Assembly (NCBI GenBank): GCA_016181845.1
Contig: JACOYO010000001.1
Coordinates: 33,133 to 97,132 of the forward strand
Length of the DNA stretch: 64,000 nt
Reading direction: 5' to 3'
From: Parcubacteria group bacterium
GTDB lineage: Bacteria; Patescibacteriota; Minisyncoccia; Phycocordibacterales; 21-14-all-47-15
Position numbers and translations under genes: made by a program. The notes under the pieces were generated by a model. The model was not told the origin of the DNA. It was given only the letters and a program-made list of their open reading frames with translations, and did no database searches. Below are positions 4,395 to 31,902 of this stretch, piece after piece (within the stretch, counting starts at the first letter, position 1; the number at the start of each line of letters is the position of its first letter).

Positions 4395-5462
4395 CTAATC
4401 TATGCTAATACGTCTCCCTGGAGCAATCGAGGTGTGCAGTTCGGATTCTCGCTCGGCATGTTTTAAATCCGCTTCCGCCATCATTTGTGCCAATTTTTTA
4501 AAAGTAATTTTTGGTTTCCAACTCAAGACTTTCCGCGCTTTTCTTGGGTCTCCCAACAGTAAATCAACCTCGTTTGGTCTGAAATGTTTCGGGTCAATCT
4601 TGATAATAGTCTTGCCTGTTTTTCGGTCAACTCCCGTTTCTTTCAAGCCCCTGCCACGCCATACAATATCCATACCTAAATGATTCGCCGCCTCTTCGAC
4701 AAATTCCCGCACCGTGTGAGTCTCGCCGGTCGCAATCACGAAATCATCAGGCTTTTTGTGCTGTAAAATCTTCCATACAGCCTCCATATAATCTTTCGAG
4801 TATCCCCAGTCGCGTTTTGCATCAAGATTTCCAAGCATAAGCACCGGCTCAAGACCAAGCCTCACGCGCGACAAGCCAAGAGTGATTTTTCTTGTCACGA
4901 AATTAAATCCACGCCGCGGTGACTCGTGGTTAAAGAGAATCCCATTTGAAGCAAAGATGCCGTATCCATCACGAAAAATTTTTGTAATATGAAACGCAAA
5001 TACTTTTGAAAGCCCATACGGCGATTGAGGATTGAACTTGGTATTTTCATTTTGCGGAGTAGCGAGCACCTTGCCAAACATTTCAGAAGAGCTCGCCTGA
5101 TAGTATTTTGCCGGTAAATCAAAATTACGAATGGTTTCCAAAATGCGAAGTGGCCCGAGCGCATTCACATTCGCCGTATACTCCGGTTTATCAAAACTGA
5201 TTCGCACATGGCTTTGCGCCGCAAGGTTATAGATTTCATCCGGCTCTATTTTGTGAATAATACGGACCAAGTTAGAACTGTCAGATAAATCTCCGTATGC
5301 CATAAAAAGATTCGGGTCGGACAAATGGTCCAAGCGAATAGTATTCGGCATGCTTGAACGCCGCTGAATGCCATACACCTGGTATCCCTTCTCCAAAAGA
5401 AGCTCGGTCAAATATGAGCCGTCTTGTCCTGTTATGCCTGTGATTAATGCTTTTTTTGCCAT
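4395..5462 (-). CDS. gmd: GDP-mannose 4,6-dehydratase
   Basis: N-terminus ALITGITGQDGSYLTELLLEKGYQVYGI..RRSS and overall length ~355 aa match Gmd closely. Confidence 0.9.
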   Translation of the reverse strand: MAKKALITGITGQDGSYLTELLLEKGYQVYGIQRRSSMPNTIRLDHLSDPNLFMAYGDLSDSSNLVRIIHKIEPDEIYNLAAQSHVRISFDKPEYTANVNALGPLRILETIRNFDLPAKYYQASSSEMFGKVLATPQNENTKFNPQSPYGLSKVFAFHITKIFRDGYGIFASNGILFNHESPRRGFNFVTRKITLGLSRVRLGLEPVLMLGNLDAKRDWGYSKDYMEAVWKILQHKKPDDFVIATGETHTVREFVEEAANHLGMDIVWRGRGLKETGVDRKTGKTIIKIDPKHFRPNEVDLLLGDPRKARKVLSWKPKITFKKLAQMMAEADLKHAERESELHTSIAPGRRISID

Positions 5463-5495
5463 TTGCAGAATGAAACTAAAGATTGGCTAATAATA

Positions 5496-6044
5496 TCACT
5501 TGTTTTTAATGAAGGCAATAATATCCTTTGCGCCTTGCCGTATAGCGGAATGAAAATCGGAATGACTGACGTGCTCTGGAGATACCCATTGCAATGCAGC
5601 GTATTCGTCATTTGGCTTAAGCGCTGCCATTTCCTTATCGGTAATCGTTGCAGTCATTGTTATAGAAACCGTGTGTGAACCATTCTCAATCGGCTCTTGC
5701 GCCCTTTCTCCCCAGACCAAAGAGTACGTTCCGATATAAGACAGGCGCGACACTTCAATATCCAAACTAAGTTCTTCTTTTAATTTTCTAGAAGCCGCTT
5801 CTTCAAAACTTTCTCCCGGCATCATCCGCCCGCCGATAATCCACCAATCGGGCCATGGGGCTCTTGTTCTTTTTCCAAGCAATATTTCTCCGCGATTGTT
5901 GATAACCGCAATATCGGCAGTGGCAACCACCACACTATCAAGCACTTTTGCATACTCCTCAGCACTTAAAGACGCAGCATGACGATTAAACGCGCCAGTT
6001 ACAAAATGATGGTAATTCATTTTCATATGATAACATCTCCGCAT
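5496..6044 (-). CDS. NUDIX hydrolase (GDP-mannose mannosyl hydrolase-like)
   Basis: Nudix box GGRMMPGESFEEAASRKLKEELSL. Adjacent to gmd. Start overlaps the upstream stop codon. Confidence 0.7.
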   Translation of the reverse strand: MRRCYHMKMNYHHFVTGAFNRHAASLSAEEYAKVLDSVVVATADIAVINNRGEILLGKRTRAPWPDWWIIGGRMMPGESFEEAASRKLKEELSLDIEVSRLSYIGTYSLVWGERAQEPIENGSHTVSITMTATITDKEMAALKPNDEYAALQWVSPEHVSHSDFHSAIRQGAKDIIAFIKNK

Positions 6045-6850
6045 TAAACAAAGTCACTTTTGAGTAACCCGGTATCTGTTTCTTCCAATCTCCATCCGAC
6101 CGCTCCGCAAATTTCCTTCAAGTGTCCCGCGTTAGCGGTTTTTGGTATCACAACGATATCTTGGCTGATTAACCAATTGAGCGCTATTTGAATTGGCGTT
6201 TTTTGATATTTTTTACTCAAGGTATTGAGTATTTCTTTTTGCTCGAGCGCCAGCTTTCCTTTTGCAAGCGGGCGGTGCGCAATTACTTTTATATTATTCT
6301 CTTTGCAAAACGGAATAATTTCTTTCTCCGCCGAACGTTCGAGCAAGCTGTATTCGATTTGATTTGCCGCAAGAGTCGTCTTGCTCAAATACGATTGCGC
6401 CTCCTCCATAATCGGCACGGAAAAGTTGCTGACGCCGATATGGCGCACTTTTTTATTTGATACCAATTCCTCAAGCGCCCGCATAGTCTCCAGCAAAGGC
6501 GCCGCTTCGTTCGGCCAATGAATTAAATATAGATCAATATAATCGGTCTGTAACCGTTTCAGACTTTTCTCTGCCGCTGCCAAAACAGCATCATGGCGCA
6601 GATTGGTCTTCCAGACTTTTGTAATGAGAAAAATATCTTCTCTGTTGTGTCCTTTTATGGCTTGCCCTACTATCTCCTCGGTCAACCCTTCCCCATACAA
6701 TTCTGCCGTATCAATAAGCCTTATGCCGAGAGCAAGTCCTTGTTTCAAAATAGAAATTGATTGTTCGATATTGCTTTCGTCTCTTTCATATTTTCCGCCC
6801 ATGCCCCACGTACCCATGCCAAGCGCCGGAATGTTCATTTCTTTACCCAT
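6044..6850 (-). CDS. Aldo-keto reductase
   Basis: LGMGTWGMG ... IDTAELYG ... LITKVW motifs typical of aldo-keto reductases. Confidence 0.8.
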   Translation of the reverse strand: MGKEMNIPALGMGTWGMGGKYERDESNIEQSISILKQGLALGIRLIDTAELYGEGLTEEIVGQAIKGHNREDIFLITKVWKTNLRHDAVLAAAEKSLKRLQTDYIDLYLIHWPNEAAPLLETMRALEELVSNKKVRHIGVSNFSVPIMEEAQSYLSKTTLAANQIEYSLLERSAEKEIIPFCKENNIKVIAHRPLAKGKLALEQKEILNTLSKKYQKTPIQIALNWLISQDIVVIPKTANAGHLKEICGAVGWRLEETDTGLLKSDFV

Positions 6851-6855
6851 GTTTC

Positions 6856-8094
6856 TTATACAATGATTACTGCAGGCGTTGGTATGATAAATTTCCCCTT
6901 ATATCCGGCACCCCTTATTTTCGGAATCAATTCATCTGCAATGTTCCAGGAAAGGAGGAGCGCGTATTCCGGTTGGTCAACAAATAAACGGCTTTCCGGC
7001 ACGACGGGGATGCGTGTGCCGGGCGCAAAAAGACCGATTTTTAATGGGCTTTTTTCAACCAAATAATCAACGAGGCCAGGATTTGATGCGCAAAAATTGA
7101 GAAGCGTATTGCCTTTTGCCGGCGCGCCGATACCGACAACCCGCTTCCCCATACCCCGCTGTTCGGAAATGAATTTTTGAATGGAAATTTTATTTTGATT
7201 TGCCTTTTCGGCAAAATCGGCATATGTTTCTTTTTTATACAACCCCGCCGCTTCTTCTTTGTTGATAAGATGTTCAACAGTATCAAGCACTTTATGAGCC
7301 CCCTTTTTTGCTGCATAGATGCGGATTGAGCCGCCATGGGTAGAAATTTTTTCCGCATCAAACATTTCCAGCCCGTGAGCCGCAAACAACATCTTGAGCG
7401 GTTTCAATGAATAATACCGCAAGTGCTCATGATACACGGCGTCATATTGCAGTTTGGTAATCATATCGAGCAAATACCCCGATTCCGATACAAACACTCC
7501 ATCCTGAGTAAGCAGTTCCGCAACGCCGGCCAAAAAATCATTCAGTTTATTAACATGAGCAAAAACATTCGTTGCAGTTATTATTTTCGCATTGCCGTAT
7601 TTTTTCTCCACTTGCATAGCCACTGTCTTGGAAAAAAAATCAACGAGAGTCGGTATGTTATTTTTCAAAGCCAATTGAGCCGAGCTTGACGGGTCAATTC
7701 CTAAAATTTTCACACCGTACGGCACATAATTCGATAAAAGTGTCCCGTCGTTTGAACCGATATCAATTGCAAAATCGGTATTTTTTAATTGGAAACGCTC
7801 TATCAAGGTCTCAACGAGATTGTAAAAATTAACCTTGAGACTGTTGTTGGTCGCAGTATTGTATACATAATCCACAAACAATTTTTCCGGCGGAACAATA
7901 TGGTTTAGCTGAACCAAACCGCATGTCTCGCAAAAACAAAGTTCAAGCGGATATGTCGCTTCCGGTTTGCAAAGGTCTTCTGATTTCAAAAAAGCATCGC
8001 TTGGCGGCTGGTGCCCCAAATCAAGGAAATTAAAGAAGGTTGTGTTGTCGCAAATAAAACAATGCATGCCATTACTTATCAAATCGATAGACAA
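6856..8094 (-). CDS. SAM-dependent C-methyltransferase (TylCIII/NovU-like; N-terminal Zn-binding domain, C-terminal C-methyltransferase domain)
   Basis: N-terminal C-x2-C ... C-x2-C (CFICDN ... CFCETCG). Central DIGSNDG SAM-binding motif. ~410 aa architecture of NDP-hexose C-methyltransferases. Confidence 0.7.
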   Translation of the reverse strand: MSIDLISNGMHCFICDNTTFFNFLDLGHQPPSDAFLKSEDLCKPEATYPLELCFCETCGLVQLNHIVPPEKLFVDYVYNTATNNSLKVNFYNLVETLIERFQLKNTDFAIDIGSNDGTLLSNYVPYGVKILGIDPSSSAQLALKNNIPTLVDFFSKTVAMQVEKKYGNAKIITATNVFAHVNKLNDFLAGVAELLTQDGVFVSESGYLLDMITKLQYDAVYHEHLRYYSLKPLKMLFAAHGLEMFDAEKISTHGGSIRIYAAKKGAHKVLDTVEHLINKEEAAGLYKKETYADFAEKANQNKISIQKFISEQRGMGKRVVGIGAPAKGNTLLNFCASNPGLVDYLVEKSPLKIGLFAPGTRIPVVPESRLFVDQPEYALLLSWNIADELIPKIRGAGYKGKFIIPTPAVIIV

Positions 8095-9895: not shown

Positions 9896-10977
9896 GTAAT
9901 GTTATTCAAAATTGTCGCTATCTTTTTTATTTCTTGTTTTTTTAGATACGGGTACATCGGCAGTGAGAATATCTCTCGGGCGTAGCGTTCCGCCACAGGA
10001 AAGCTATTTTTTTCCTGTTTTGCGTAAAATGGGTGGCGATGGAGCGGGGTTCTATAATGGATGAGTGTTTGAATACCATGCTCTTTCAAGAGCTTCATTA
10101 TAGCATCCCTTTTTGGGGCGCGCACCACAAATAAATGATACACGCACTGGCTATCCCCCTGCGGGGTCGGTAATACAATCTTTGGATTCACAATTAAGTT
10201 CCGATACTGGAGAGCAAGCTGCTGTCTTGTTCGATTCCATGTATCTACATACTTTAATTTTACACTGAGTACAGCCGCTTGTATTTCATCAAGACGGCTA
10301 TTCATCCCCGGTATTGAACACACCTGCCTGTCTTTCTGCCCGTAAAAACGCTCCGCTAGAAGTTTTGTGTAATTTTTTTTGCTTTTTGTGATAATGGCGC
10401 CGCCGTCCCCATACGCGCCGATATTCTTGGTCGGATAAAAAGAAAAACATCCAAAATCTCCAAAACTTCCCACCTTTTTACCTTTCCACATTGCACCGGT
10501 CGCTTGGGCGCAATCCTCTATAAGCGTCAGGCGAAAACGCCGTGAAATTTTCTTTAGGGCGTCCATATCGCATGCTTGACCGTACAAATGTACCGCGATA
10601 ATCGCTTTGGTTTTTTTATTTATACGCCGAACAATCTGTTTACTATCAATTAAAAATGACTCATCGCAATCAACAAAAACGGGGCGCGCGCCGCTCATGG
10701 ATACCGCCATGGCAGTCGGCAATGCCGTGTTTACCGGCACAATCACCTCATCTCCTTGCCCGATACCCGCGCATAGAAGACTTAGGTAGAGCGCGTCGGT
10801 CCCGGAATTTACCCCCACGCAATATGGGGCATCGCAGTATTCGGCAAAACGTTTTTCAAAATTCTCTAATTCAGGCCCCAGGACAAACCACCCGCGCCGT
10901 AAGACACGATGAATTGCCTCATCAATTTCCTTTTTCAAGGATTTATATTCACGCGTAAAATCAACAAATGGGATCAT
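9892..10977 (-). CDS. DegT/DnrJ/EryC1/StrS-family PLP-dependent sugar aminotransferase
   Basis: FVLGPELENFEKRFAEYC ... GVNSGTDALYL, with the conserved Lys region; ~360 aa. Confidence 0.85.
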   Translation of the reverse strand: MIPFVDFTREYKSLKKEIDEAIHRVLRRGWFVLGPELENFEKRFAEYCDAPYCVGVNSGTDALYLSLLCAGIGQGDEVIVPVNTALPTAMAVSMSGARPVFVDCDESFLIDSKQIVRRINKKTKAIIAVHLYGQACDMDALKKISRRFRLTLIEDCAQATGAMWKGKKVGSFGDFGCFSFYPTKNIGAYGDGGAIITKSKKNYTKLLAERFYGQKDRQVCSIPGMNSRLDEIQAAVLSVKLKYVDTWNRTRQQLALQYRNLIVNPKIVLPTPQGDSQCVYHLFVVRAPKRDAIMKLLKEHGIQTLIHYRTPLHRHPFYAKQEKNSFPVAERYAREIFSLPMYPYLKKQEIKKIATILNNIT

Positions 10978-10978
10978 G

Positions 10979-11410
10979 TTACTTTTTTATATATTTTAAA
11001 AATTCATCATAATCACGTAGGTAATCGCTCTCGTCATGATGGTCGTTGGCAATCACCAGGATCACGCAATCCGGAGAAAATTTAGTCATGGTGTGCCACA
11101 CTTTTGGCCTCAGCAGCAGCCCTACCGAAGGATTATCCATGGGAATTTTCTGCTTATTTTCACCGTCATCCAACATCATCTCAAAAGAGCCATTCACGCA
11201 AAAAATAATTTGCTCTAATTTTTTATGCGCATGCTTCCCACGAATCGCTTTAGGGTTTTCTAATTGGTTAATAAAATAAAATCTTTTGATGGCAAAGGGT
11301 ATTTGTTTAAATTCTTCGCCAATAAATAACTGGCCATTCGGAGCATTGGAAAAGGCCCTGAGATAAACCATGTCTGCGTCAAAATAATTTTTATCACCAT
11401 TCGTATTCAT
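10979..11410 (-). CDS. dTDP-4-keto-6-deoxyhexose 3,4-ketoisomerase-like cupin (FdtA/QdtA/WxcM-like)
   Basis: RGKHAHKKLEQIIFCVNGSF motif of the FdtA family; ~143 aa. Immediately upstream of the aminotransferase. Confidence 0.7.
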   Translation of the reverse strand: MNTNGDKNYFDADMVYLRAFSNAPNGQLFIGEEFKQIPFAIKRFYFINQLENPKAIRGKHAHKKLEQIIFCVNGSFEMMLDDGENKQKIPMDNPSVGLLLRPKVWHTMTKFSPDCVILVIANDHHDESDYLRDYDEFLKYIKK

Positions 11411-12878: not shown

Positions 12879-14327
12879 CTATGATTTCCCGCCAAACCAT
12901 ACGATTGCAATCCATAACTTTGCGAGGCGTGCCACGATAACCATAATTCTCGGAATATTTAACGCTTGTGATTTCCCGTACATTCTAAAATAATGAGATA
13001 CGCCAACTTCCGCAAATTTGAATCCTTTGTTTTGGGCTTTCTTCAATAATTCAACTGAAATAACTCCCGACTCACTTTCCAAATTTAGATTATCCAAGAC
13101 AGCGCGTCTCATCAATCTAAAATCACAATCTGGGTCCTTGACGGATAGCCAAAAAATCAACTTCATTAAATGCCGATAGATAATGTCAATAATAATTCTA
13201 TGGAATGGTTCCACATTTCCTATCTTGTACCCACTAACAATATCAATACGACTATCTAATTGTTCTAATAATTTTGGCAATTCTCGTATATCATACGATG
13301 CGTCTGCTTCAGTATAACAAACAATATCTTTTTGGGTTGCCGCGAAACCGCTTCGGAGTGTAGCGCCATACCCTTGCTTTTTATGGTGAAAAATGAGTTT
13401 TAATTCAGGAATTGAATTTTTTAATTCCAAAAGCAATTCCTGGCTTCCGTCGGTAGAATAATCATCAACGACAATAATCTCAAAATCATTAGTAAGAGAA
13501 CGTGCGACTTTTTTTGCTTCTACTATCATTGTGGCAATTGTCCCCTTATCATTAAAGCATGGAAATACAATTGATAATGATGGCACACGCGCGCTAATCT
13601 GTTTTTTATATTGCATAAATTTCCCCGCTTCAAGCAGACTGTCCGTGGTCCCAATATCAAACCAGTTTTTTTCAAGTATTATTGCTTGCAACGCGCCATC
13701 CTCAATGTATTTATTATTGATATGAGTGATTTCATATTCTCCCCGTCCTGATTTCTGTTGTCCTAGCATTTTTTCAAAAACCGTATTGTCATAAAGATAA
13801 ACACCAGTAACCGCCTTGTTTGATTTCGGATTTTTTGGCTTTTCTTCAATCTCAATAATATTGTTGCTTCCATCAATAGTCGCGACACCAAACCGTTCCG
13901 GGTCATTTACTTCTTTCAAAAAAACAAGCGCCCCTTTCTTAAAATTTTCAACATATTCGCTTATATCATCTTCAAAAATATTATCACCTAAATATAAAAC
14001 ACAATTATCGTTGCCGACATACTCTTTGGCAATATGCAGTCCGTCGGCAATACCAGATGGCTTATCCTGAATCCCGTATACTATCTGAATACGTTTGCCC
14101 GTTTTGGGGGAAATAAAATTTTGACCGGAACCCACTAATTGAACAAAATGATGCTGATACTCCGGCGGAGTAACAATCATGATGTGGTCAATTCCAGCCG
14201 ATACCAGTTTTTCAATCGCGTAAAAAATAACCGGCTTATCATATATCGGCAAAAGATGCTTATTTGTAATGTGAGTAAAGGGCGCCAATCGTGTACCGCT
14301 CCCTCCGGCTAAAATAACTCCTTTCAT
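12879..14327 (-). CDS. Fusion protein: N-terminal RmlA-like sugar-1-phosphate nucleotidyltransferase + C-terminal GT2 (DPM1-like) glycosyltransferase
   Basis: N-terminus MKGVILAGGSGTRLAPFT..K..LP (G-x-G-T-R nucleotidyltransferase signature, ~240 aa). Then SIVFPCFNDKGT ... VVDDYSTDGS ... YTEADAS (GT2 DxD). Confidence 0.75.
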   Translation of the reverse strand: MKGVILAGGSGTRLAPFTHITNKHLLPIYDKPVIFYAIEKLVSAGIDHIMIVTPPEYQHHFVQLVGSGQNFISPKTGKRIQIVYGIQDKPSGIADGLHIAKEYVGNDNCVLYLGDNIFEDDISEYVENFKKGALVFLKEVNDPERFGVATIDGSNNIIEIEEKPKNPKSNKAVTGVYLYDNTVFEKMLGQQKSGRGEYEITHINNKYIEDGALQAIILEKNWFDIGTTDSLLEAGKFMQYKKQISARVPSLSIVFPCFNDKGTIATMIVEAKKVARSLTNDFEIIVVDDYSTDGSQELLLELKNSIPELKLIFHHKKQGYGATLRSGFAATQKDIVCYTEADASYDIRELPKLLEQLDSRIDIVSGYKIGNVEPFHRIIIDIIYRHLMKLIFWLSVKDPDCDFRLMRRAVLDNLNLESESGVISVELLKKAQNKGFKFAEVGVSHYFRMYGKSQALNIPRIMVIVARLAKLWIAIVWFGGKS

Positions 14328-15384: not shown

Positions 15385-17235
15385 TTATATCGCATCCCGC
15401 CCATGGTGTGTAAAAACAAAAATCTTATACCCAAAAAAATTACCGAAAAATGCGATTGGGATTTCTATGGCAAGAGCTATATTTACCCATATCTTAGGGT
15501 CTATGCCATTAGGCGCGCCGATAACATTAACGATAATATGAAGCAAAAATATATTCAAGAGAGATGTGGCGCTCGTTATGGTAAAAAATTTAATGTACTC
15601 TGCTCTTCCGTTGTCGGTATTGTGCGCACGAAATGTCCAGAATTTATTCCAAAAAAAACTGTGCGTGATGGTAATTATTGAAGAAATGATCGTAAAAAAA
15701 ATCACCTGCCAGCCGCGCGCTATGTCGGTAAACCAAATAAAAAGATTGGTAATACCGGCAAAAAGAAACGTATTTAAAAGCCCTATCAATCCATATTTCC
15801 CAATTTGGAAAATTGAGGAACGCCACCGCATGCCCAATAGATATGCGCCGTATAAACCGGCAACGGTCATAAACGGAAGCAAAAAAAGCCAGAGTCCAAT
15901 TACAAAAAAGGAGAGCCCATGATTGTAGCGCGCTAATATGTCAAACACTTTTATATTTTGAAACACAGGAATAGAAAGCAGAGCGATGGCTTCCCCAATA
16001 ATAAGCGTCCGCCAAAAATCGGTTTTGGTGAACACTAAAATTTCTCCAAGTTCTTTATACGTGTTGCCTGACGTCTGGCGTAAAACAGTCCCATTATTAT
16101 GTAGGATGTTTTTCATAAAATGAATAATATTCGCGGCCCTGTTGCTCCAAGAATATTCCACCACGGTCTCTCGCGCTTTTTTTGAGAATGTTTTTAGAGC
16201 CGCGCAATCAGACAATCCGAAAACAGTCTTTTTTGCCAAATCGTTCGGGTTATCCGCATCAAAAAATATGGCCGTTGTTTCATGCAGTATCTCGCGTACA
16301 GCAGGCGTATCAGAAGCAATAATCGGCGTGCCAGAAGCCATATACTCAAAAAGTTTCATTGGTGAAGTGTACTCCCTTCCTATTTTCTCTTTTCCGCTTG
16401 TTGGCAAGACTAGCACATCCGCTGCTCTAAGCCACAACGGAATTTCCTGATGCTGGCGATGCCCGACAAAAATAATGTTTTTATATTTTATATTTTGTAT
16501 TTTGTATTTTGAAACTTCTTCTGCAGTGCCGCCGACGAGATATACGAGCATATCTGCATCCAATTTTTTTGCCGCCTCAATCAAAGTGTTAACACCCTTC
16601 CACTTGTAAAGATGTCCAGCGTAAAGAATGATTTTTTTATCAAGCGGAAGATTAAGCGTTTTTCTCGCGGCTTCTTTTGATATAACAATATCAAAACGCC
16701 TCAAATCAACGGCATCCGGCGCACAAAGTATTTTATCTTCAGAGACTCCAAAGCGCATGAGGTCTTTTTTTATGCCGTTGCTGATGACGACCAATCCCAT
16801 ACTTTTGCGCAAAACAAAATTGTGAAGAAACGATGACTTTTGAGGAAGTGTATGAAGCTCATAAAATATAGGCTTATGGAATAAAGCGAACAGAAACGCA
16901 ACCAAAAAATCACGGGTATAAAATACTGCGTCTTTTTCAAAAACCGCTCGCGCAATTGCCGACACGGAAAACGTAACGCTTTCAATCCAAAACCAAAGGG
17001 GTTTAAAAAAAGGAATCGGAATCAAATCCAAAACTGGCAAACGTTTGATATTGAATACTGCATCAACGCCATAATACAGAAAAGGGTCCTGTTTTATCGG
17101 GTTAAGCCTCCACGGCACAACAAGCGTAATTTCAATATCTTTCCCCTGTTTAAAGGCGCGTGCGGTATTCATAATCTGAACCCCGTGTGCTTTCTCCGTC
17201 GGCAAGCGAATATTTGCAATATATAAGAGTTTCAT
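15385..17235 (-). CDS. Fusion protein: N-terminal GT4 glycosyltransferase + C-terminal GtrA-like 4-TM membrane domain
   Basis: GT4 body (residues ~1-380) followed by hydrophobic helices ending YIKFFTITSATSLLNIFLLHIIVNVIG ... FFGNFFGYKIFVF (GtrA-like). Contains a heptanucleotide tract at 16484-16511. Confidence 0.65.
   Translation of the reverse strand: MKLLYIANIRLPTEKAHGVQIMNTARAFKQGKDIEITLVVPWRLNPIKQDPFLYYGVDAVFNIKRLPVLDLIPIPFFKPLWFWIESVTFSVSAIARAVFEKDAVFYTRDFLVAFLFALFHKPIFYELHTLPQKSSFLHNFVLRKSMGLVVISNGIKKDLMRFGVSEDKILCAPDAVDLRRFDIVISKEAARKTLNLPLDKKIILYAGHLYKWKGVNTLIEAAKKLDADMLVYLVGGTAEEVSKYKIQNIKYKNIIFVGHRQHQEIPLWLRAADVLVLPTSGKEKIGREYTSPMKLFEYMASGTPIIASDTPAVREILHETTAIFFDADNPNDLAKKTVFGLSDCAALKTFSKKARETVVEYSWSNRAANIIHFMKNILHNNGTVLRQTSGNTYKELGEILVFTKTDFWRTLIIGEAIALLSIPVFQNIKVFDILARYNHGLSFFVIGLWLFLLPFMTVAGLYGAYLLGMRWRSSIFQIGKYGLIGLLNTFLFAGITNLFIWFTDIARGWQVIFFTIISSIITITHSFFWNKFWTFRAHNTDNGRAEYIKFFTITSATSLLNIFLLHIIVNVIGAPNGIDPKIWVNIALAIEIPIAFFGNFFGYKIFVFTHHGRDAI
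16484..16511. repeat. Heptanucleotide simple sequence repeat (TATTTTG)x3-4 inside the GT4-GtrA CDS
   Basis: Reads tatttta tattttg tattttg tattttg. Coding strand (CAAAATA)n encodes KYKIQNIKYKN in frame. Confidence 0.8.
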
Positions 17236-22993: not shown

Positions 22994-23132
22994 TTATGAA
23001 ATAGTATTTTTAGCAGAGCCTTGCGGACCCCGACAGTTATCGTCGTGGGAGCAGAGCATCCGCCCTGGGCGGAAGCATCCGCCCTGGGCGGAATGCGTGC
23101 TGTGCGAGAAATACTATTTCGTAATTTATAGT
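22994..23132. repeat. MITE-like intergenic repeat element, divergent copy E4, containing a 19-bp tandem duplication
   Basis: GAAATAGTATTTTTAGCAGAGCCTTGCGGA aligns with the E1-E3 5' module. (GCATCCGCCCTGGGCGGAA)x2 at 23056-23093 matches the E3 hairpin. Ends with the family terminus TTTCGTAATTTATAG. Confidence 0.6.
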
Positions 23133-23141
23133 AATAAAATA

Positions 23142-24506
23142 TTAACTAAACAAATGTCCTATTCGTTCCCGAATCCTATCAAGATTTCTTAGCGCGTCAA
23201 ATAAGGTATTGCTGAAAAGAAGCAGTGTAACAAGAGCCAAGACTTTCAATTCCCTGCGACCGCGCCATAAATCAAACAACCCATAACTGGCAAATATCGC
23301 AAAAAACGGATACACAAGAAATCGATACCTCGTTTCCACAATGATACCAATAATAGCGATGGGCATCATCACAAGCATCCAGAGTAACATTTTTGCGCGT
23401 TCTTTTTCATCCGCGGAAAGCTCTTTCATACGATAGATGCCCCAAAAACCGAAAATAAAAAGAATGGCGGAGTAAACCGCAGACAATGTAAGTGTTAAGG
23501 CCTTGCTCATTCCTTCCAGATGAAACCAAAATCCGGTCGGGCGAGCGAAACTAAAATAAATGGAAATTCGCTTAAAAGTAATTTCCAAAAATTCTATCGG
23601 ACGAGAGAAAATAAAGCCAAGCGATTCTTTGAGCGCGAGCTTATTCCCTTCTATCCTTCCCTCTTTCATAAATATTTCATTACCCTCGTACGGCTCAAGT
23701 TCGCCAGAGGCACCAGGATGATTTCCGGCAAGCAAATCATACCCAAACGCAAGGTTGGTCGGGATAAAGGTGTGATACATGCGATAATTGCGGACCGTCC
23801 ACGGAGTAAAGACAAGCGTAAGTACGATAAGAAACACGCCTAGTTCTTTCCAAAATTTTTGCCAGATAAAATAGCCCGCCAGCGGAAAGATTAAAAAAAG
23901 CGCCGGAGTGCGCACCAAGACCGCAAAACCAAATACCACGGCCAACAACATCAACAACCATATTGATGCATTGGCATTTCTTTCGATATATCGAAAGAAA
24001 ATATATACGCTTAAAATAATAAAAAATATCCCGAGTGTCTCTGTCATGAGCATGCCGTTTATCGTAATTAAATCGGGAGAAAAGCCGATAAGCCCAGCGG
24101 CAACGAGCCCGATTGGCAAGCTCCAATGTTCTTTGAATATTTGTTTGCTGATAAGAAAAATAAAAAACGCAGAAAATGCCGACAAAAGCGCATTAATAAT
24201 CCACACGACTTGATAGTGATGCCCGAACAAATAATAAACGCCAGCCAAAAAAAATTCATAACCGGGTCCGACGCGCAAAATGGCCAAATCTTCATCGTAT
24301 GAAAGATCCGCCTGCTCTTTATATCCGTTCCCCTGCACAAGATTCCATGCAATGTTGTCATATGCTCGCGCGTCAACCGCAGGTGCAATGTAAAAATAAA
24401 GAGAGTACGCATAGGCAACCAGAAAAATACCGAGAACGAGAAGGCCGATTATTTTTTTCTCCATATCGTCTTGATACAAACGAGAGAACATATTCTGCAA
24501 GGACAT
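23142..24506 (-). CDS. GT-C-family membrane glycosyltransferase (PMT/ArnT-like, GT39/GT83-type)
   Basis: ~13 transmembrane helices. N-terminal loop motif DARAYDNIAWNLVQGNGY resembles the first extracytoplasmic loop of PMT/ArnT enzymes. Sits next to a DPM1-like GT2. Confidence 0.55.
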   Translation of the reverse strand: MSLQNMFSRLYQDDMEKKIIGLLVLGIFLVAYAYSLYFYIAPAVDARAYDNIAWNLVQGNGYKEQADLSYDEDLAILRVGPGYEFFLAGVYYLFGHHYQVVWIINALLSAFSAFFIFLISKQIFKEHWSLPIGLVAAGLIGFSPDLITINGMLMTETLGIFFIILSVYIFFRYIERNANASIWLLMLLAVVFGFAVLVRTPALFLIFPLAGYFIWQKFWKELGVFLIVLTLVFTPWTVRNYRMYHTFIPTNLAFGYDLLAGNHPGASGELEPYEGNEIFMKEGRIEGNKLALKESLGFIFSRPIEFLEITFKRISIYFSFARPTGFWFHLEGMSKALTLTLSAVYSAILFIFGFWGIYRMKELSADEKERAKMLLWMLVMMPIAIIGIIVETRYRFLVYPFFAIFASYGLFDLWRGRRELKVLALVTLLLFSNTLFDALRNLDRIRERIGHLFS

Positions 24507-28511: not shown

Positions 28512-29561
28512 TCATTTTTCTCTATTGAGAAGGTCGGTCATTTTTTTTATGACAGAGACGCCGCTGTGGTTTTGTATCACCAGAGACTGAAGCTCGCGGA
28601 GTTCATATTTTGAGGCCGTCTTGATTTCTAATATTTTTTGGACAATATAATCTGCGTTGGTATTCCGCAAAAGATGTTTTTCTGGCAACATTGCAAAAAA
28701 AGCTTCGTTTGAAGTGAGCACGTTAACCCCTGACGCCATCGCTTCAAGGACCGCCTTATCAAGACTTCCGGTTTCGCTCAAATTGATAAAGAGATCGCTT
28801 TTTTGATAAAAGGAGTGGATATCGGAATACGAAACCGCGCCAACAAAAAACACGCTGTCATCTATCCCCTTCGCTTGTATCTCTTTTTTTAATCGAATGA
28901 AATAGTCATAATCCGCATTTGTAATCGGCGCCCCGACAATTTTCATTTCAAAAGAAACGCCTTCTTTTTTCAAAAGTTCTGCCGCTTCAAGCATCATGTG
29001 AATATTTTTTGCCGGCGTAATTCTACTGACAGAAAGAATATTCAATTTTTCGTGCGGCCACTTGTCCACCGGATGAAAACGCTCCGTATCAATCCCATGT
29101 CCTACTACATGCACCTTGTCGCTTTTCAAACGAAAACTTTCTTTTGAGGCGGTAAAGATAATATCGGATAATTTTTCCGCGACGCGCAATTTCATATCAA
29201 CCTGTTTGTGCGTATACCATAGCGCAATTTTTTTAGACAAAAGTTTCCAAAACACACCTCCGAGCAAAATATATATCGGATTCATGTGCACGAAGACCGT
29301 ATCGTAATTTTTTTTCTCATTCCAGATATATCTATAAAACCTTGCGATATATCGAAAGGTTTTTATTACAGTGGCACCAGCAAATTCTTCTTTGCCGAGC
29401 GATAATACGGAAACATTCTGCGGCAAATGGTATTTGCCTTTTTGCAAACAAATAACCGTAACTTTTTCAGCATGCTTGGCAAATTCTTCAATCCACCGGA
29501 CAAAAAAACCGAGGTTGTCGTCCTGTTCGTCCACTTTTTGAGTTATGATAAGCAGTCGCAT
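28512..29561 (-). CDS. Glycosyltransferase family 1 (GT4); contains the 28-bp palindrome, copy A, in frame
   Basis: C-terminal GT-B domain (GSLDKAVLEAMASGVNVL); ~349 aa. The palindrome encodes KTFRYIARFY. Confidence 0.8.
   Translation of the reverse strand: MRLLIITQKVDEQDDNLGFFVRWIEEFAKHAEKVTVICLQKGKYHLPQNVSVLSLGKEEFAGATVIKTFRYIARFYRYIWNEKKNYDTVFVHMNPIYILLGGVFWKLLSKKIALWYTHKQVDMKLRVAEKLSDIIFTASKESFRLKSDKVHVVGHGIDTERFHPVDKWPHEKLNILSVSRITPAKNIHMMLEAAELLKKEGVSFEMKIVGAPITNADYDYFIRLKKEIQAKGIDDSVFFVGAVSYSDIHSFYQKSDLFINLSETGSLDKAVLEAMASGVNVLTSNEAFFAMLPEKHLLRNTNADYIVQKILEIKTASKYELRELQSLVIQNHSGVSVIKKMTDLLNREK
29334..29366. repeat. 28-bp near-perfect palindrome AAAACCTTGCGATATATCGAAAGGTTTT (copy A), inside the GT4 CDS
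   Basis: Same palindrome at 42936-42966 and 49363-49393. Confidence 0.85.
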
Positions 29562-29567
29562 AAAAAA

Positions 29568-30677
29568 TTACAAATAAATAGCGCATGACTCCCACTGTTT
29601 TTTATATACCCGAAGATACTCTTCTTTTGAAATTTCATTTGATGCGCGTGTGAATCGCCCGCCGCTTGAAAGAGCCGCTGACAACGAGTCCGCGAGGCAG
29701 ATGGAATTGCCGACAGAGCATATAAAAACACCATCTCCTGAAACGACATCTCCCGCAATCCCCACATCAGTGGTTACTATGGGCAACCCTGCCCTATACG
29801 CCTCCACAAGCGAGAGCCCGTATCCTTCATAAAATGATGTGTGAAGATACACGTCGGCGGCGGCATAATAAGATGCAATTTCTTTTTGAGAGCCGACAAA
29901 TATAGCGCTGTCTTCCAATTTGAGATTTGAGATTTGGGACTTGAGATTTTTTCTCTCGCTTCCGTCACCAACAACAAGAAGCCCAGCTTTGGGATATGTT
30001 TTAATAATTTTTTCAAACACCTCAATCGCACGGGCAACATTTTTTTCCGGCTCAAGTCGCGAGACAACAAGAACGATTTTTTCAAACTGTGGAAACTCTG
30101 CGCGGACACGGCTGCCGTCCGCATTTTTGAATTTTTGAACATCGGTGAAAATCGGCAGTACGGCAATCGGCGCATTGGTGAATCCACTGATAGATTTTTT
30201 AATTCGCTCCGACACCACGCGGACACAATCGGCTTTGGGCAATAAAAATTTCGCAACCATCACCCGAATTTTATTTTTGATATTTTCCGCGGCAAAATAG
30301 TGGCTCATGAAATCGGTATGTACCTGCAGCTCAAGCCGCGCGCCAAGAGCGCGCGAGACGCGCCATCCGGCAAAACCGGTTTCAAACGGGTTTTGGCAAG
30401 TAACCAGGAAATCATGAGTCATGAATAATGAATCATGATTGATGCGCTTCGCGATTTTGTATGCGTCAAAAATATACAGCCAGCGGCTCAAAGAATTTGT
30501 GGAATAAATGAAAACATTGTCTGAAATCTTGATTCTTGATTCTTGATTCTTGATTCTTGCGCGGAAAATTATAATATGCAATTCTTCACACAATCTTCCA
30601 TACTCAATCATCCTCGCGCGCACCGCCGAGTCTTTTTCAAAAATTTTTGAATCAGTTGATAGCATTAGTACTCTCAT
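29568..30677 (-). CDS. Glycosyltransferase family 1 (GT4), paralogue 1 of a tandem pair, with two heptanucleotide tracts
   Basis: GT-B C-terminal domain (YGLSLVEAYRAGLPIVTT). Shares the peptide ERKNLKSQISNLKLE with the next gene. Confidence 0.8.
   Translation of the reverse strand: MRVLMLSTDSKIFEKDSAVRARMIEYGRLCEELHIIIFRARIKNQESRIKISDNVFIYSTNSLSRWLYIFDAYKIAKRINHDSLFMTHDFLVTCQNPFETGFAGWRVSRALGARLELQVHTDFMSHYFAAENIKNKIRVMVAKFLLPKADCVRVVSERIKKSISGFTNAPIAVLPIFTDVQKFKNADGSRVRAEFPQFEKIVLVVSRLEPEKNVARAIEVFEKIIKTYPKAGLLVVGDGSERKNLKSQISNLKLEDSAIFVGSQKEIASYYAAADVYLHTSFYEGYGLSLVEAYRAGLPIVTTDVGIAGDVVSGDGVFICSVGNSICLADSLSAALSSGGRFTRASNEISKEEYLRVYKKQWESCAIYL
29918..29952. repeat. Heptanucleotide repeat (GAGATTT)n, interrupted (gagattt gagattt gggactt gagattt), in GT4 paralogue 1
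   Basis: Coding strand AAATCTC units encode ..KSQISNLK.. in frame. One unit is degenerated by synonymous changes. Confidence 0.8.
30528..30560. repeat. Heptanucleotide repeat (TCTTGAT)x4.7 in GT4 paralogue 1
   Basis: Four perfect units plus a partial unit. Coding strand (AGAATCA)n encodes RIKNQESRIKIS. Confidence 0.85.
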
Positions 30678-31837
30678 AGTTGTTTAAAAAATTGAGTTAA
30701 ATTCTCAAGCATTTTTTCTTTTGAAAATCCCGCCGCTTTTTCACGCGCCGATTTTTCAAAACGCTGGCGCGCCACTGTCACATCCGCCAGTATTTCAATG
30801 ATTGCTTCTGCAAGAGCTTTTTTATCTTGATGCGTCACCAACCGCCCTGAAACGCTGTCTTCAATCAATTCAGAATTTCCGCCTACACGGGTCGTAACCA
30901 CGGGCACTCCCAAAGCCATCGCCTCAAGAATAGTGTGCGACAACCCTTCGTATCCGGTATTTAGCACGAATACATCCGCCACCATTAAATAAAGCATAGT
31001 GTCGTCGTGCGACAATTGCCCGATTAAGAATACGCTATTCTCCAATTTGAGATTTGAGATTTGAGATTTGAGATTCTTTCTTTCCGGCCCATCTCCGATA
31101 ATGTAGAGTTTTGCCTGCGGATATTTTTTTACTATTTCAGAAAACATTTCTATTAATGTTTCAAATCCTTTCCACGAAACAAGCCGCCCGATAGACACTA
31201 GTATCTCTCCTGGCCAGTCCCGCCCTTCAACGCGAGCCGGGGCGGACAAAAGAAGTCTCGCGCGAGCTTCATCGTGAGTGATATTTTGTTTCGGTAATTC
31301 AAACGCGTTATAGATAACTTCTACTTTTTCTGGAGCAACCCCCCATCCGTACACAATAATTTTTTTCAAATATTCGCTCGGCACAACTATCTTGTCCGCA
31401 TAGCGCGCCACATATTTTTGTATAGACCTACGCATTTCAATCCCAAGAGAATATTTTTTTCCCTGAAATTCATCCAACAAATCATATTCCTGATTTCTGA
31501 TTCCTGATTCCTGATTCACATATTCTTCCCACGCGCGGTCTCCTACAATTTTTACCACAAATTTTTTACCAAGTATTTTGGCGGCGCACAATGCGGGCAA
31601 GCCGACACCGAGCGGGTCTTGCGCGAAAATAATACCCGCCTCGGCTCCAGCGCGAAGCAGTTTGAAAAAATAAAAAAGATGTTTTACGCCAAAAGGCCAT
31701 TTTTTTACATCGCTCAATTTCACCACGGCAACCTGAAACCCACGGAGCGAGAGCTCGCGTTCCAAAAGAGCGGTGTATGTGGCCGGTCCGCCGATTTCGG
31801 GCGGATAGAGCGGTGTAGCAATAAGTATTTTTTGCAT
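30674..31837 (-). CDS. Glycosyltransferase family 1 (GT4), paralogue 2 of the tandem pair, with two heptanucleotide tracts
   Basis: GT-B C-terminal domain (YEGLSHTILEAMALGVPVVTT). Start taken at MQKILIATPLYPPEIGG; the ORF track extends to 31870 through a palindromic site. Confidence 0.8.
   Translation of the reverse strand: MQKILIATPLYPPEIGGPATYTALLERELSLRGFQVAVVKLSDVKKWPFGVKHLFYFFKLLRAGAEAGIIFAQDPLGVGLPALCAAKILGKKFVVKIVGDRAWEEYVNQESGIRNQEYDLLDEFQGKKYSLGIEMRRSIQKYVARYADKIVVPSEYLKKIIVYGWGVAPEKVEVIYNAFELPKQNITHDEARARLLLSAPARVEGRDWPGEILVSIGRLVSWKGFETLIEMFSEIVKKYPQAKLYIIGDGPERKNLKSQISNLKLENSVFLIGQLSHDDTMLYLMVADVFVLNTGYEGLSHTILEAMALGVPVVTTRVGGNSELIEDSVSGRLVTHQDKKALAEAIIEILADVTVARQRFEKSAREKAAGFSKEKMLENLTQFFKQL
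31049..31076. repeat. Heptanucleotide repeat (GAGATTT)x3 plus GAGATTC in GT4 paralogue 2
   Basis: Four tandem units. Coding strand (AAATCTC)n encodes NLKSQISNLK in frame. Confidence 0.85.
31489..31516. repeat. Heptanucleotide repeat (CCTGATT)x4, one imperfect, in GT4 paralogue 2
   Basis: Reads cctgatt tctgatt cctgatt cctgatt. Coding strand (GAATCAG)n encodes NQESGIRNQE. Confidence 0.8.
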
Positions 31838-31869: not shown

Positions 31870-31902
31870 ATATCGTATGTTTTACTTAACCATCTTCAAC
31901 TT

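Follow-up and report, generated by a model that had tools for sequence, protein, structure and literature searches.

The DNA analysed here, which we call the window, is a stretch of 64,000 nucleotides of the genome of a Parcubacteria group bacterium, an ultrasmall groundwater organism (assembly GCA_016181845.1, contig JACOYO010000001.1, positions 33,133 to 97,132), and our subject is a heptanucleotide repeat tract that lies inside one of its glycosyltransferase genes. This gene encodes a fusion of a GT4 glycosyltransferase with a GtrA domain (protein record MBI2045843.1 of the metagenome-assembled genome, or MAG). Gene and tract consist of the following elements.

15385 to 17235, minus strand: GT4-GtrA fusion gene, 616 amino acids, identified from its open reading frame (ORF), Pfam matches and full-length homologues (P0002-P0017).

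16096 to 17235, minus strand: GT-B fold or GT4 catalytic part, amino acids 1-380 (AlphaFold2 model m0baaf6ccf9da; PF00534).

15412 to 15798, minus strand: GtrA/DPMS transmembrane domain, amino acids 480-608 (PF04138, GtrA_DPMS_TM, 9e-15).

16491 to 16511, minus strand: perfect heptanucleotide units, CAAAATA on the coding strand, 3.0 copies, encoding KYKIQN(I).

16477 to 16490, minus strand: two degenerate units, TAAAATA and TAAAAAC on the coding strand, with TAA stops in both shifted frames.

Read on the plus strand, positions 16484-16511 consist of TATTTTA followed by TATTTTG three times, that is, three perfect units and an imperfect one, and the outermost degenerate unit (GTTTTTA) occupies 16477-16483. 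Tandem Repeats Finder (TRF) calls an array of period 7 at 16479-16511, with 4.7 copies and 96% matches. The coding strand runs T, CAAAATA three times, TAAAATA and TAAAAAC, and its in-frame reading is S-KYKIQNIKYKN, the peptide of the tract within the 616-residue protein being SKYKIQNIKYKN. A sequence-only reading had placed a tract in the fusion gene and translated it as KYKIQNIKYKN, and the sequence, the ORF and the translation all bear this out.

The two parts of the fusion protein are well supported by Pfam: Glycos_transf_1 (PF00534) matches amino acids 187-356 (1.6e-24, 86.8 bits), PF13692 scores 84.3 bits and PF04138 scores 55.3 bits against a cut-off of 26.1. The AlphaFold2 model has a mean predicted local distance difference test (pLDDT) score of 81, reaching about 90 or above over most of amino acids 1-380, where alternating strands and helices match the two-Rossmann-domain GT-B fold, as judged from the model. 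The long helices at 473-607 are of lower confidence and agree with membership of the GtrA/DPMS family. Since many full-length homologues have the same GT4-GtrA architecture, the sequence comparison indicates that the fusion is genuine and not a frameshift artefact. The gene sits in a glycan locus with RmlA-GT2, dTDP-sugar dehydratase, AsnB-like amidotransferase and methyltransferase genes, and the protein families suggest a role for its product at the cell surface.

The tract is one of six period-7 arrays in the window. The sequence-only reading had counted at least five such tracts in glycosyltransferase genes; a tolerant lag scan found six at lag 7, two arrays at lag 5 and none at lags 4, 6 or 8-11, and all six lie in GT4 genes. 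The window has seven GT4-like ORFs, of which three carry all of these arrays (15385-17235, 29568-30677 and 30674-31837), the latter two forming a tandem pair with the following arrays.

29568 to 30677, minus strand: GT4 gene GT4b, 369 amino acids, with three period-7 arrays (ORF, Pfam).

29918 to 29949, minus strand: GT4b array of coding AATCTCA type, 4.6 copies, 84% matches, translated as KNLKSQISNLKL and sharing the structural site of the 16491 tract (TRF, alignment).

30410 to 30438, minus strand: GT4b array, TRF unit AATCATG (plus strand), 4.1 copies, 81% matches (TRF).

30527 to 30559, minus strand: GT4b array, coding TCAAGAA, 4.7 perfect copies (TRF, perfect-run count).

30674 to 31837, minus strand: GT4 gene GT4a, 387 amino acids from its ATG, with two arrays; the ORF is extendable to a TTG at 31870 (ORF, Pfam).

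31045 to 31075, minus strand: GT4a array with 4.4 perfect copies of coding AATCTCA, translated as NLKSQISNLKL and likewise sharing the structural site of the 16491 tract (TRF, alignment).

31486 to 31517, minus strand: GT4a array, coding CAGGAAT, 4.6 copies, 92% matches (TRF).

The six arrays use five different units, and CAAAATA occurs at no other array of the window. With its three perfect units, the tract at 16491-16511 is the weakest of the six. It is A/T-rich as well, and these two properties are what would be expected if it were a chance product of low-complexity sequence or an artefact of assembly. However, when perfect runs of at least three copies were counted in the window for periods 4 to 12, four were found for period 7, one for period 4 (1.2 expected) and none for the others, and the mean number of period-7 runs was 0.0 in 200 windows simulated with an order-2 Markov model, not one of which contained such a run. 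Not one period-7 run appeared in 2000 rounds of codon shuffling of the three array-bearing genes. Moreover, the MAG and the assemblies of three separate sequencing runs agree in the DNA of the tract, and the period of 7 is kept in orthologues from other samples (see below), so that we regard chance or artefact as refuted.

We extended the repeat statistics from the window to related loci, namely 80 loci (1.36 Mb) from Patescibacteria MAGs, obtained in a scan of one genome per GTDB species and picked by homology to the GT4-GtrA gene; the nearest GTDB relative is 51% identical, which places the source genome outside this set of genomes. These loci contain 32 perfect runs of at least three copies of period 4, two of period 5, two of period 6, 14 of period 7 and none of periods 8-12. 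TRF reports 30 period-7 arrays in them in addition to the six of the window, and 31 of these 36 fall in GT4-like ORFs, which hold 26% of the bases (binomial p=6e-14). PF00534 was found in all 22 array-bearing GT4 ORFs; the remaining three host ORFs encode a GT2 enzyme, a TylF-type methyltransferase and another methyltransferase. Lag-7 arrays occur in 10.7% of GT4-like ORFs versus 1.5% of other ORFs, the corresponding frequencies for a lag-8 control being 0.6% and 0.8%. The set of GT4-like ORFs was defined with a home-built hidden Markov model (HMM), and the enrichment test is conservative if that model is over-inclusive. By these counts the 16491-16511 tract can be placed in a non-random class of heptanucleotide arrays in Patescibacteria GT4 genes. 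That the clustering of the tracts is no coincidence, as the sequence-only reading had argued, is supported by their specificity for period 7 and for GT4 genes in the window and in about 80 other Patescibacteria species; its view of a locus-wide feature proved too narrow, as the feature extends across the GT4 family and across the phylum.

The arrays recur at a few places in the protein fold. In the AlphaFold2 model, the tract corresponds to amino acids 242-253, which form the end of a helix (238-247) and the loop leading to a strand at 254-258, with another strand (229-234) just before. In an alignment of the array-bearing proteins, residues 240-255 of the fusion protein, the site of the 16491 tract, take 15 of the 31 GT4 arrays, and the others cluster near residues 68-82, 98-103, 129 and 160-190. 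This main site is the helix plus loop that lies between strands two and three in the C-terminal Rossmann domain. The idea that every hot spot for arrays is a helix holds only in part, the secondary sites being helix ends, loops and an interdomain linker.

The peptides encoded by the arrays, among them KNLKSQISNLKL, KLKVKSEKLKV, KFQIPNSKFQI and SKYKIQNIKYKN, have in common an L/I-K spacing of seven residues. This raises the question of whether selection acts on the protein, for example for an amphipathic helix that is rich in Lys and Asn and has its hydrophobic residues spaced by seven, the periodicity of the DNA being a by-product of biased codons in an AT-rich genome. The seven-residue spacing of L/I-K in the array peptides, the helix-loop predicted at the site and the conserved length of the segment among aligned homologues of the GT4-GtrA gene would all fit such a requirement. 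But selection at the codon level yields a 21-nucleotide periodicity at most and not the identity of units in three reading frames, and the absence of such runs from the 2000 codon shuffles points the same way. Furthermore, orthologous peptides differ while the period of 7 stays, and one homologue (L089, 51% identity) has no periodicity at the site. A requirement at the protein level is largely refuted by the shuffles as the origin of the arrays.

The orthologues of the fusion gene show how the units change. At the tract codons, where the window gene has CAAAATA three times, L003 (70% amino-acid identity) has CAAAATT twice followed by CAAAATA, L004 (65%) has CAAAACA twice followed by CAAAATA, and L005 (67%) and L088 (63%) have degenerate units of the CAAAACG type. 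Periodicity is weak at this site in L090 (54%) and absent in L089. The period of 7 is therefore kept at the same codons, but the units are lineage-specific and the encoded peptides differ. In each of two lineages (L003 and L004, considered separately), copies 1 and 2 have been altered alike, at one position of the unit and to one base, a co-variation that we estimate would arise by chance in about 1 in 900 cases. In all five groups compared, the units of one array resemble each other more closely than they resemble the units at the corresponding position of orthologues (identities of 0.92 versus 0.59, 0.81 versus 0.58, 0.73 versus 0.63, 0.82 versus 0.76 and 0.89 versus 0.54), so that the units of an array evolve in concert. 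Identical codons at the tract (16 of 20 and 16 of 18, versus 55-58% overall) indicate a modest excess of synonymous conservation that is due in part to codon bias and to which we attach little weight.

Homogenisation appears to be held in check by selection. In three arrays of group B (L042 150-183, L059 1609-1643 and L012 356-387, with units GTTAAAA, CTTAAAA and GCTGAAA), the third copy deviates at the very base that would otherwise create an in-frame TAA or TGA. The hot-spot array in L045 (gene 10001-11173) alternates between units (CAAATTC, CAAATCA, CAAATTC, CAAATCA, CAAATTG), and this ABABA pattern points to a slip of 14 nucleotides that duplicated a double unit.

Turnover of the arrays on a shorter time scale can be seen in a close relative, L093 (GCA_016214585.1, 'Ca. 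Lloydbacteria'), which is syntenic with the window over about 26.3-36.1 kb at 85-94% nucleotide identity. At the 31486 site, L093 has 4.6 copies of AATCTCA in place of the CAGGAAT array of the window and is 21 nucleotides longer; it lacks the arrays at 30410 and 30527, being shorter there by 21 and 9 nucleotides, respectively. The 29918 array is perfect in L093 and carries two substitutions in the window, and the next GT4 gene of L093 has an extra array of the AATCTCA type where the window counterpart (28512-29561) has none. The length differences between the two thus come to 21, 9 and 6 nucleotides for arrays present in one and absent from the other, and 21 nucleotides for the replaced array. 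All genes are intact in both, and every array difference preserves the frame; we conclude that misalignment acts on the arrays and that they turn over faster than their flanks.

The spread of units between sites could also be viewed in terms of recombination or conversion cassettes, in which arrays would serve as short patches of homology and ectopic exchange among GT4 paralogues would lead to in-frame mosaicism and chimeric enzymes, with no on/off function. GT4a and GT4b are only 31% identical overall, yet have the same peptide GDG(S/P)ERKNLKSQISNLKLE and near-identical array DNA at 31042-31085 and 29915-29960, which suggests conversion between the paralogues or recent copying. In L093, AATCTCA fills four arrays in three adjacent GT4 genes (4458-4500, 4918-4950, 6014-6046 and 6887-6920), two of which have the same 3' flank, AATCTGA, and in L080 arrays of AAATTCC or a one-base variant of it are found in four places (6003-6063, 6445-6510, 6880-6909 and 6748-6775). 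The N-terminal segment of GT4b that holds two arrays (30391-30598, about 70 codons) cannot be aligned to L093 by blastn, while the sequence on both sides is 89% identical, so that this segment is far more diverged than the rest of the gene; it could be imported DNA, or reflect relaxed constraint or repeat-associated mutagenesis. Exchange between cassettes nevertheless fits the 16491 tract poorly, as its CAAAATA unit is unique in the window, and five different units occur among the six window arrays. No chimeric gene was observed in these loci, and patches of about 30 nucleotides are short for RecA-type exchange. We therefore consider this explanation improbable.

We favour the reading that the tract is a slippage-prone array able to switch the enzyme off and on, to which we would give a probability of roughly 0.5. 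The tract would then be a candidate low-copy heptanucleotide contingency switch. Slipped-strand mispairing during replication would misalign the repeated units and, because 7 is not a multiple of 3, the reading frame would shift whenever one or two units were gained or lost. The predicted product after loss of one or two units ends in SKYKI followed by a stop (246 amino acids), and that after a gain ends in SKYKIQNTKYKI followed by a stop (253 amino acids), the stop in each case being a TAA within the adjoining degenerate units; a change of three units adds or removes seven residues in frame. The frameshifted stub, in which the latter half of the donor-binding domain and all of the GtrA domain are missing, would represent the OFF state, and a compensating slip would restore the frame and the ON state. 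A minority of cells would in this way be without this step of glycan synthesis, which would hedge the population against phages or against changes in the host surface. The proposal presupposes slippage at a rate high enough to be of consequence, the existence of OFF cells and selection that maintains the arrays for their ability to switch.

Several features of the tract are those of known contingency loci: it is a tandem repeat within an ORF whose unit is not a multiple of three, it shows repeat turnover over evolutionary time, and it lies in a gene of surface type, as deduced from the GT4 and GtrA families and the surrounding glycan locus. Its exactly 3.0 perfect copies place it marginally at the in-silico cut-off of PhasomeIt, which is at least three copies for units of 6-9 nucleotides; the mutability of such long-unit simple sequence repeats (SSRs) is poorly measured (PMC5953494). 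The frame-breaking period of 7 is enriched and periods 6 and 9 are not, the opposite of what is expected for neutral microsatellites in coding sequence. Taken together, the frame-breaking enrichment, the restriction to glycan genes, the concerted evolution and the rapid turnover can be read as signatures of contingency loci. The proposal of the sequence-only reading that variation here is slippage-based thus stands in one part, as misalignment of the slippage type has shaped the arrays, to judge from the concerted units and from the differences from L093; the part that concerns variation at the tract itself is not supported, no difference in length having been seen there in four assemblies.

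The main rival to the switch is a self-perpetuating neutral microsatellite, a form of 'molecular drive', which would go back to one or a few origins in ancestral GT4 genes and would have been homogenised by misalignment-repair or ectopic conversion, with frameshifts and stops purged and slippage too rare for a meaningful OFF subpopulation. This would account for the fact that all arrays are in frame, with alleles that are stable over many contigs, and for their low copy number. The third copies altered at the stop-creating base imply that selection opposes homogenisation and does not favour it, and the common register and related units of the paralogues suggest a common ancestor. On the other hand, neutral drive leaves unexplained the enrichment of the frame-breaking period 7 over the harmless periods 6 and 9, the appearance of arrays de novo at new sites within about 10% of DNA divergence, and the presence of arrays in glycan genes outside the GT4 family (GT2 and a TylF-type methyltransferase). 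A mutational hazard inside enzymes should also have been purged. We consider the neutral explanation less likely than the switch.

Several observations weigh against the switch. The NCBI MAG and the Logan assemblies made from SRR12113430, SRR12113383 and SRR12113431 all carry one and the same tract, and its length does not differ within the lineage. These four assemblies have 0 mismatches over 1.1-7.2 kb, from which the sampled population appears to be clonal, and they are consensus contigs, which hide minority alleles and are compatible with OFF cells at low frequency. The predicted OFF products of 246 and 253 amino acids were absent from a 15-billion-protein collection in an exact look-up, as were the OFF variants of the GT4 pair and one form with three additional units, but the clusters concerned have only one or two members, so that this absence is uninformative; near-identical truncated fragments of the fusion protein were likewise absent from the homologue matches. 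Across the window and the comparison loci, some 1.4 Mb of consensus sequence altogether, 34 of 34 period-7 arrays inside genes have the frame that yields the longest ORF, so that these genomes show the ON state alone. OFF alleles are frequently seen in the genomes of classical phase-variable species. An analogous array in L044 (17 cluster members on at least 30 contigs, with some ten residues varying at other positions) stays unchanged in 16 sequences distinguished by point substitutions, and the analogue in L031 has a single protein sequence on 13 contigs. The copy number is low, with three perfect units in the tract and at most about five in other arrays, versus 5-34 or 2-93 in proven heptanucleotide switches. 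The arrays lie in the middle of genes, often several to a gene, which a simple switch would not need. Finally, concerted evolution could result from mismatch correction on transiently misaligned strands, with no spread of OFF alleles. The uniform ON state, the low copy numbers, the mid-gene position and the multiple arrays per gene are all atypical of contingency loci.

One further assembly shows a different behaviour at the tract. The Logan contig L095 (SRR12113384; 2783 nucleotides) stops 9 nucleotides into it (...GAAGTTTCAAAATAC), its last base corresponding to window position 16504, where the three other assemblies read through. We put the chance of such an ending at roughly 4% and counted it as weak evidence for slippage; the position of the end is unlike that expected from a simple branch between two and three units, and it could reflect either a branch in the assembly graph or low coverage. 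The Logan contigs around the tandem GT4 pair end short of the pair on both sides. A metagenome scan with a degenerate pattern of the conserved flank found only L006 again, and a search through the adjacent methyltransferase yielded no relative of the tract with an identity between 75% and 100%. The sole split GT4 gene that we considered as a possible OFF allele (L069 6892-8048) appears to be broken at an A-run rather than at a heptamer array, and was rejected as such; the split reflects either a true pseudogene or an error in the assembly of a homopolymer.

Heptanucleotide switches in genes that modify glycans are well established in other bacteria. The closest parallel is pglE of Neisseria, encoding a glycosyltransferase of pilin glycosylation, in which a genic CAAACAC repeat of 5-34 copies turns the gene on and off by frameshift (PMC5953494). 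As in the tract studied here, a 7-nucleotide unit lies inside the ORF of a surface-decorating glycosyltransferase and changes in unit number shift the frame. The differences are that pglE varies between isolates over 5-34 copies, whereas here there are 3-5 copies, all alleles are in frame and no variation was seen, and that the present arrays lie at conserved sites within the fold, often several per gene, in an uncultivated Parcubacterium. The second parallel is the NeuO O-acetyltransferase of the Escherichia coli K1 prophage CUS-3, whose poly-psi repeat (AAGACTC, 2-93 copies) is ON at multiples of three, three units encoding one heptad of seven residues (PMC3046976). It too is a coding heptanucleotide repeat, and the in-frame differences of plus or minus 21 nucleotides between the window and L093 obey the same arithmetic. 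However, the NeuO repeat begins two nucleotides after the start codon and forms a disordered N-terminal extension whose length tunes activity, while the arrays here lie in a helix-loop of a Rossmann domain and are nearly fixed in length. With its position at amino acids 242-253 inside the fold and its conserved segment length, the tract does not qualify as a VNTR (variable number tandem repeat) of the poly-psi heptad type.

Haemophilus influenzae, whose SSRs have been surveyed (PMC2651432), offers two other comparisons. Its lipooligosaccharide (LOS) glycosyltransferase contingency loci have a 4-nucleotide unit in tens of copies near the 5' end of the gene, and their switching has been measured. 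The LOS loci resemble the present case in having repeats in several glycan genes of one genome, with one period dominating that genome, and differ from it in the 4-nucleotide unit, the 5' position and the measured switching. The hmw1A and hmw2A genes have promoter repeats of 7 bp with documented phase variability (PMC8262952; cited in PMC5953494); these are heptanucleotides as here, but are borne by the promoter and grade transcription, with no coding frameshift switch. Within the candidate phyla radiation (CPR), a Gracilibacterium gene with a hypervariable 9-mer repeat encodes in-frame PTD repeats in a long polymorphic array that broke the assembly (PMC6851277). This gene, which is not a glycosyltransferase, is the only case of repeat-driven local hypervariation in a CPR genome that we found in the literature. 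A search for phase variation or simple sequence repeats in Patescibacteria, Parcubacteria or the candidate phyla radiation found nothing relevant in the full-text literature, most subscription journals lying outside its coverage. We provisionally conclude that the class of arrays in Patescibacteria GT4 genes described here is unreported.

A few observations concern the neighbourhood of the tract and the comparison loci. Nearly all long ORFs of the window (1-64000) are on the minus strand, and scans of its 64 kb gave neither a tRNA gene nor an Rfam family that reaches the gathering score. ORF 12879-14327 encodes a glucose-1-phosphate nucleotidyltransferase domain (NTP_transferase) fused to GT2 and is kept beside the GT4-GtrA gene in relatives. 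At 23055-23093, in the spacer downstream of the minus-strand gene 23142-24506, a G+C-rich hairpin (AGCATCCGCCCTGGGCGGA) forms a perfect tandem duplication (19 nucleotides, 2.1 copies) that looks like a doubled terminator. In L080, one of the AAATTCC-type arrays covers the last codons of an upstream gene (ORF 5404-6036) and extends into the intergenic spacer, and a GT4 gene of the same locus also has a 14-nucleotide tandem duplication.

Patescibacteria make up a large share of bacterial diversity and are host-attached and almost uncultivable. We tentatively propose a wider model, to which we give somewhat less than even odds, in which the phylum possesses a 'phasome' that consists almost only of heptanucleotide arrays at a few tolerant sites of GT4 genes. 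These arrays would be homogenised, quickly moved, born and lost, with units spread between sites and paralogues, and would act in these ultrasmall episymbionts as stochastic on/off glycan switches, or occasionally as switches that insert a heptad in frame. A preference for seven may stem from its being the shortest unit that breaks the frame and, once translated, has a helix-compatible period of seven residues. Even if no switching takes place, the restriction to a period of 7, the return of arrays to the same structural sites, the sharing out of one unit among paralogues and a turnover faster than that of the flanks amount to an unusual form of repeat evolution within enzymes. If the arrays are indeed switches, they would be the first repeat-based phase-variation system described for the phylum, with a signature (period 7, GT4 genes, defined sites in the fold) that could be counted in any metagenome, and bet-hedging against phages or hosts in groundwater communities would become testable by read mapping.

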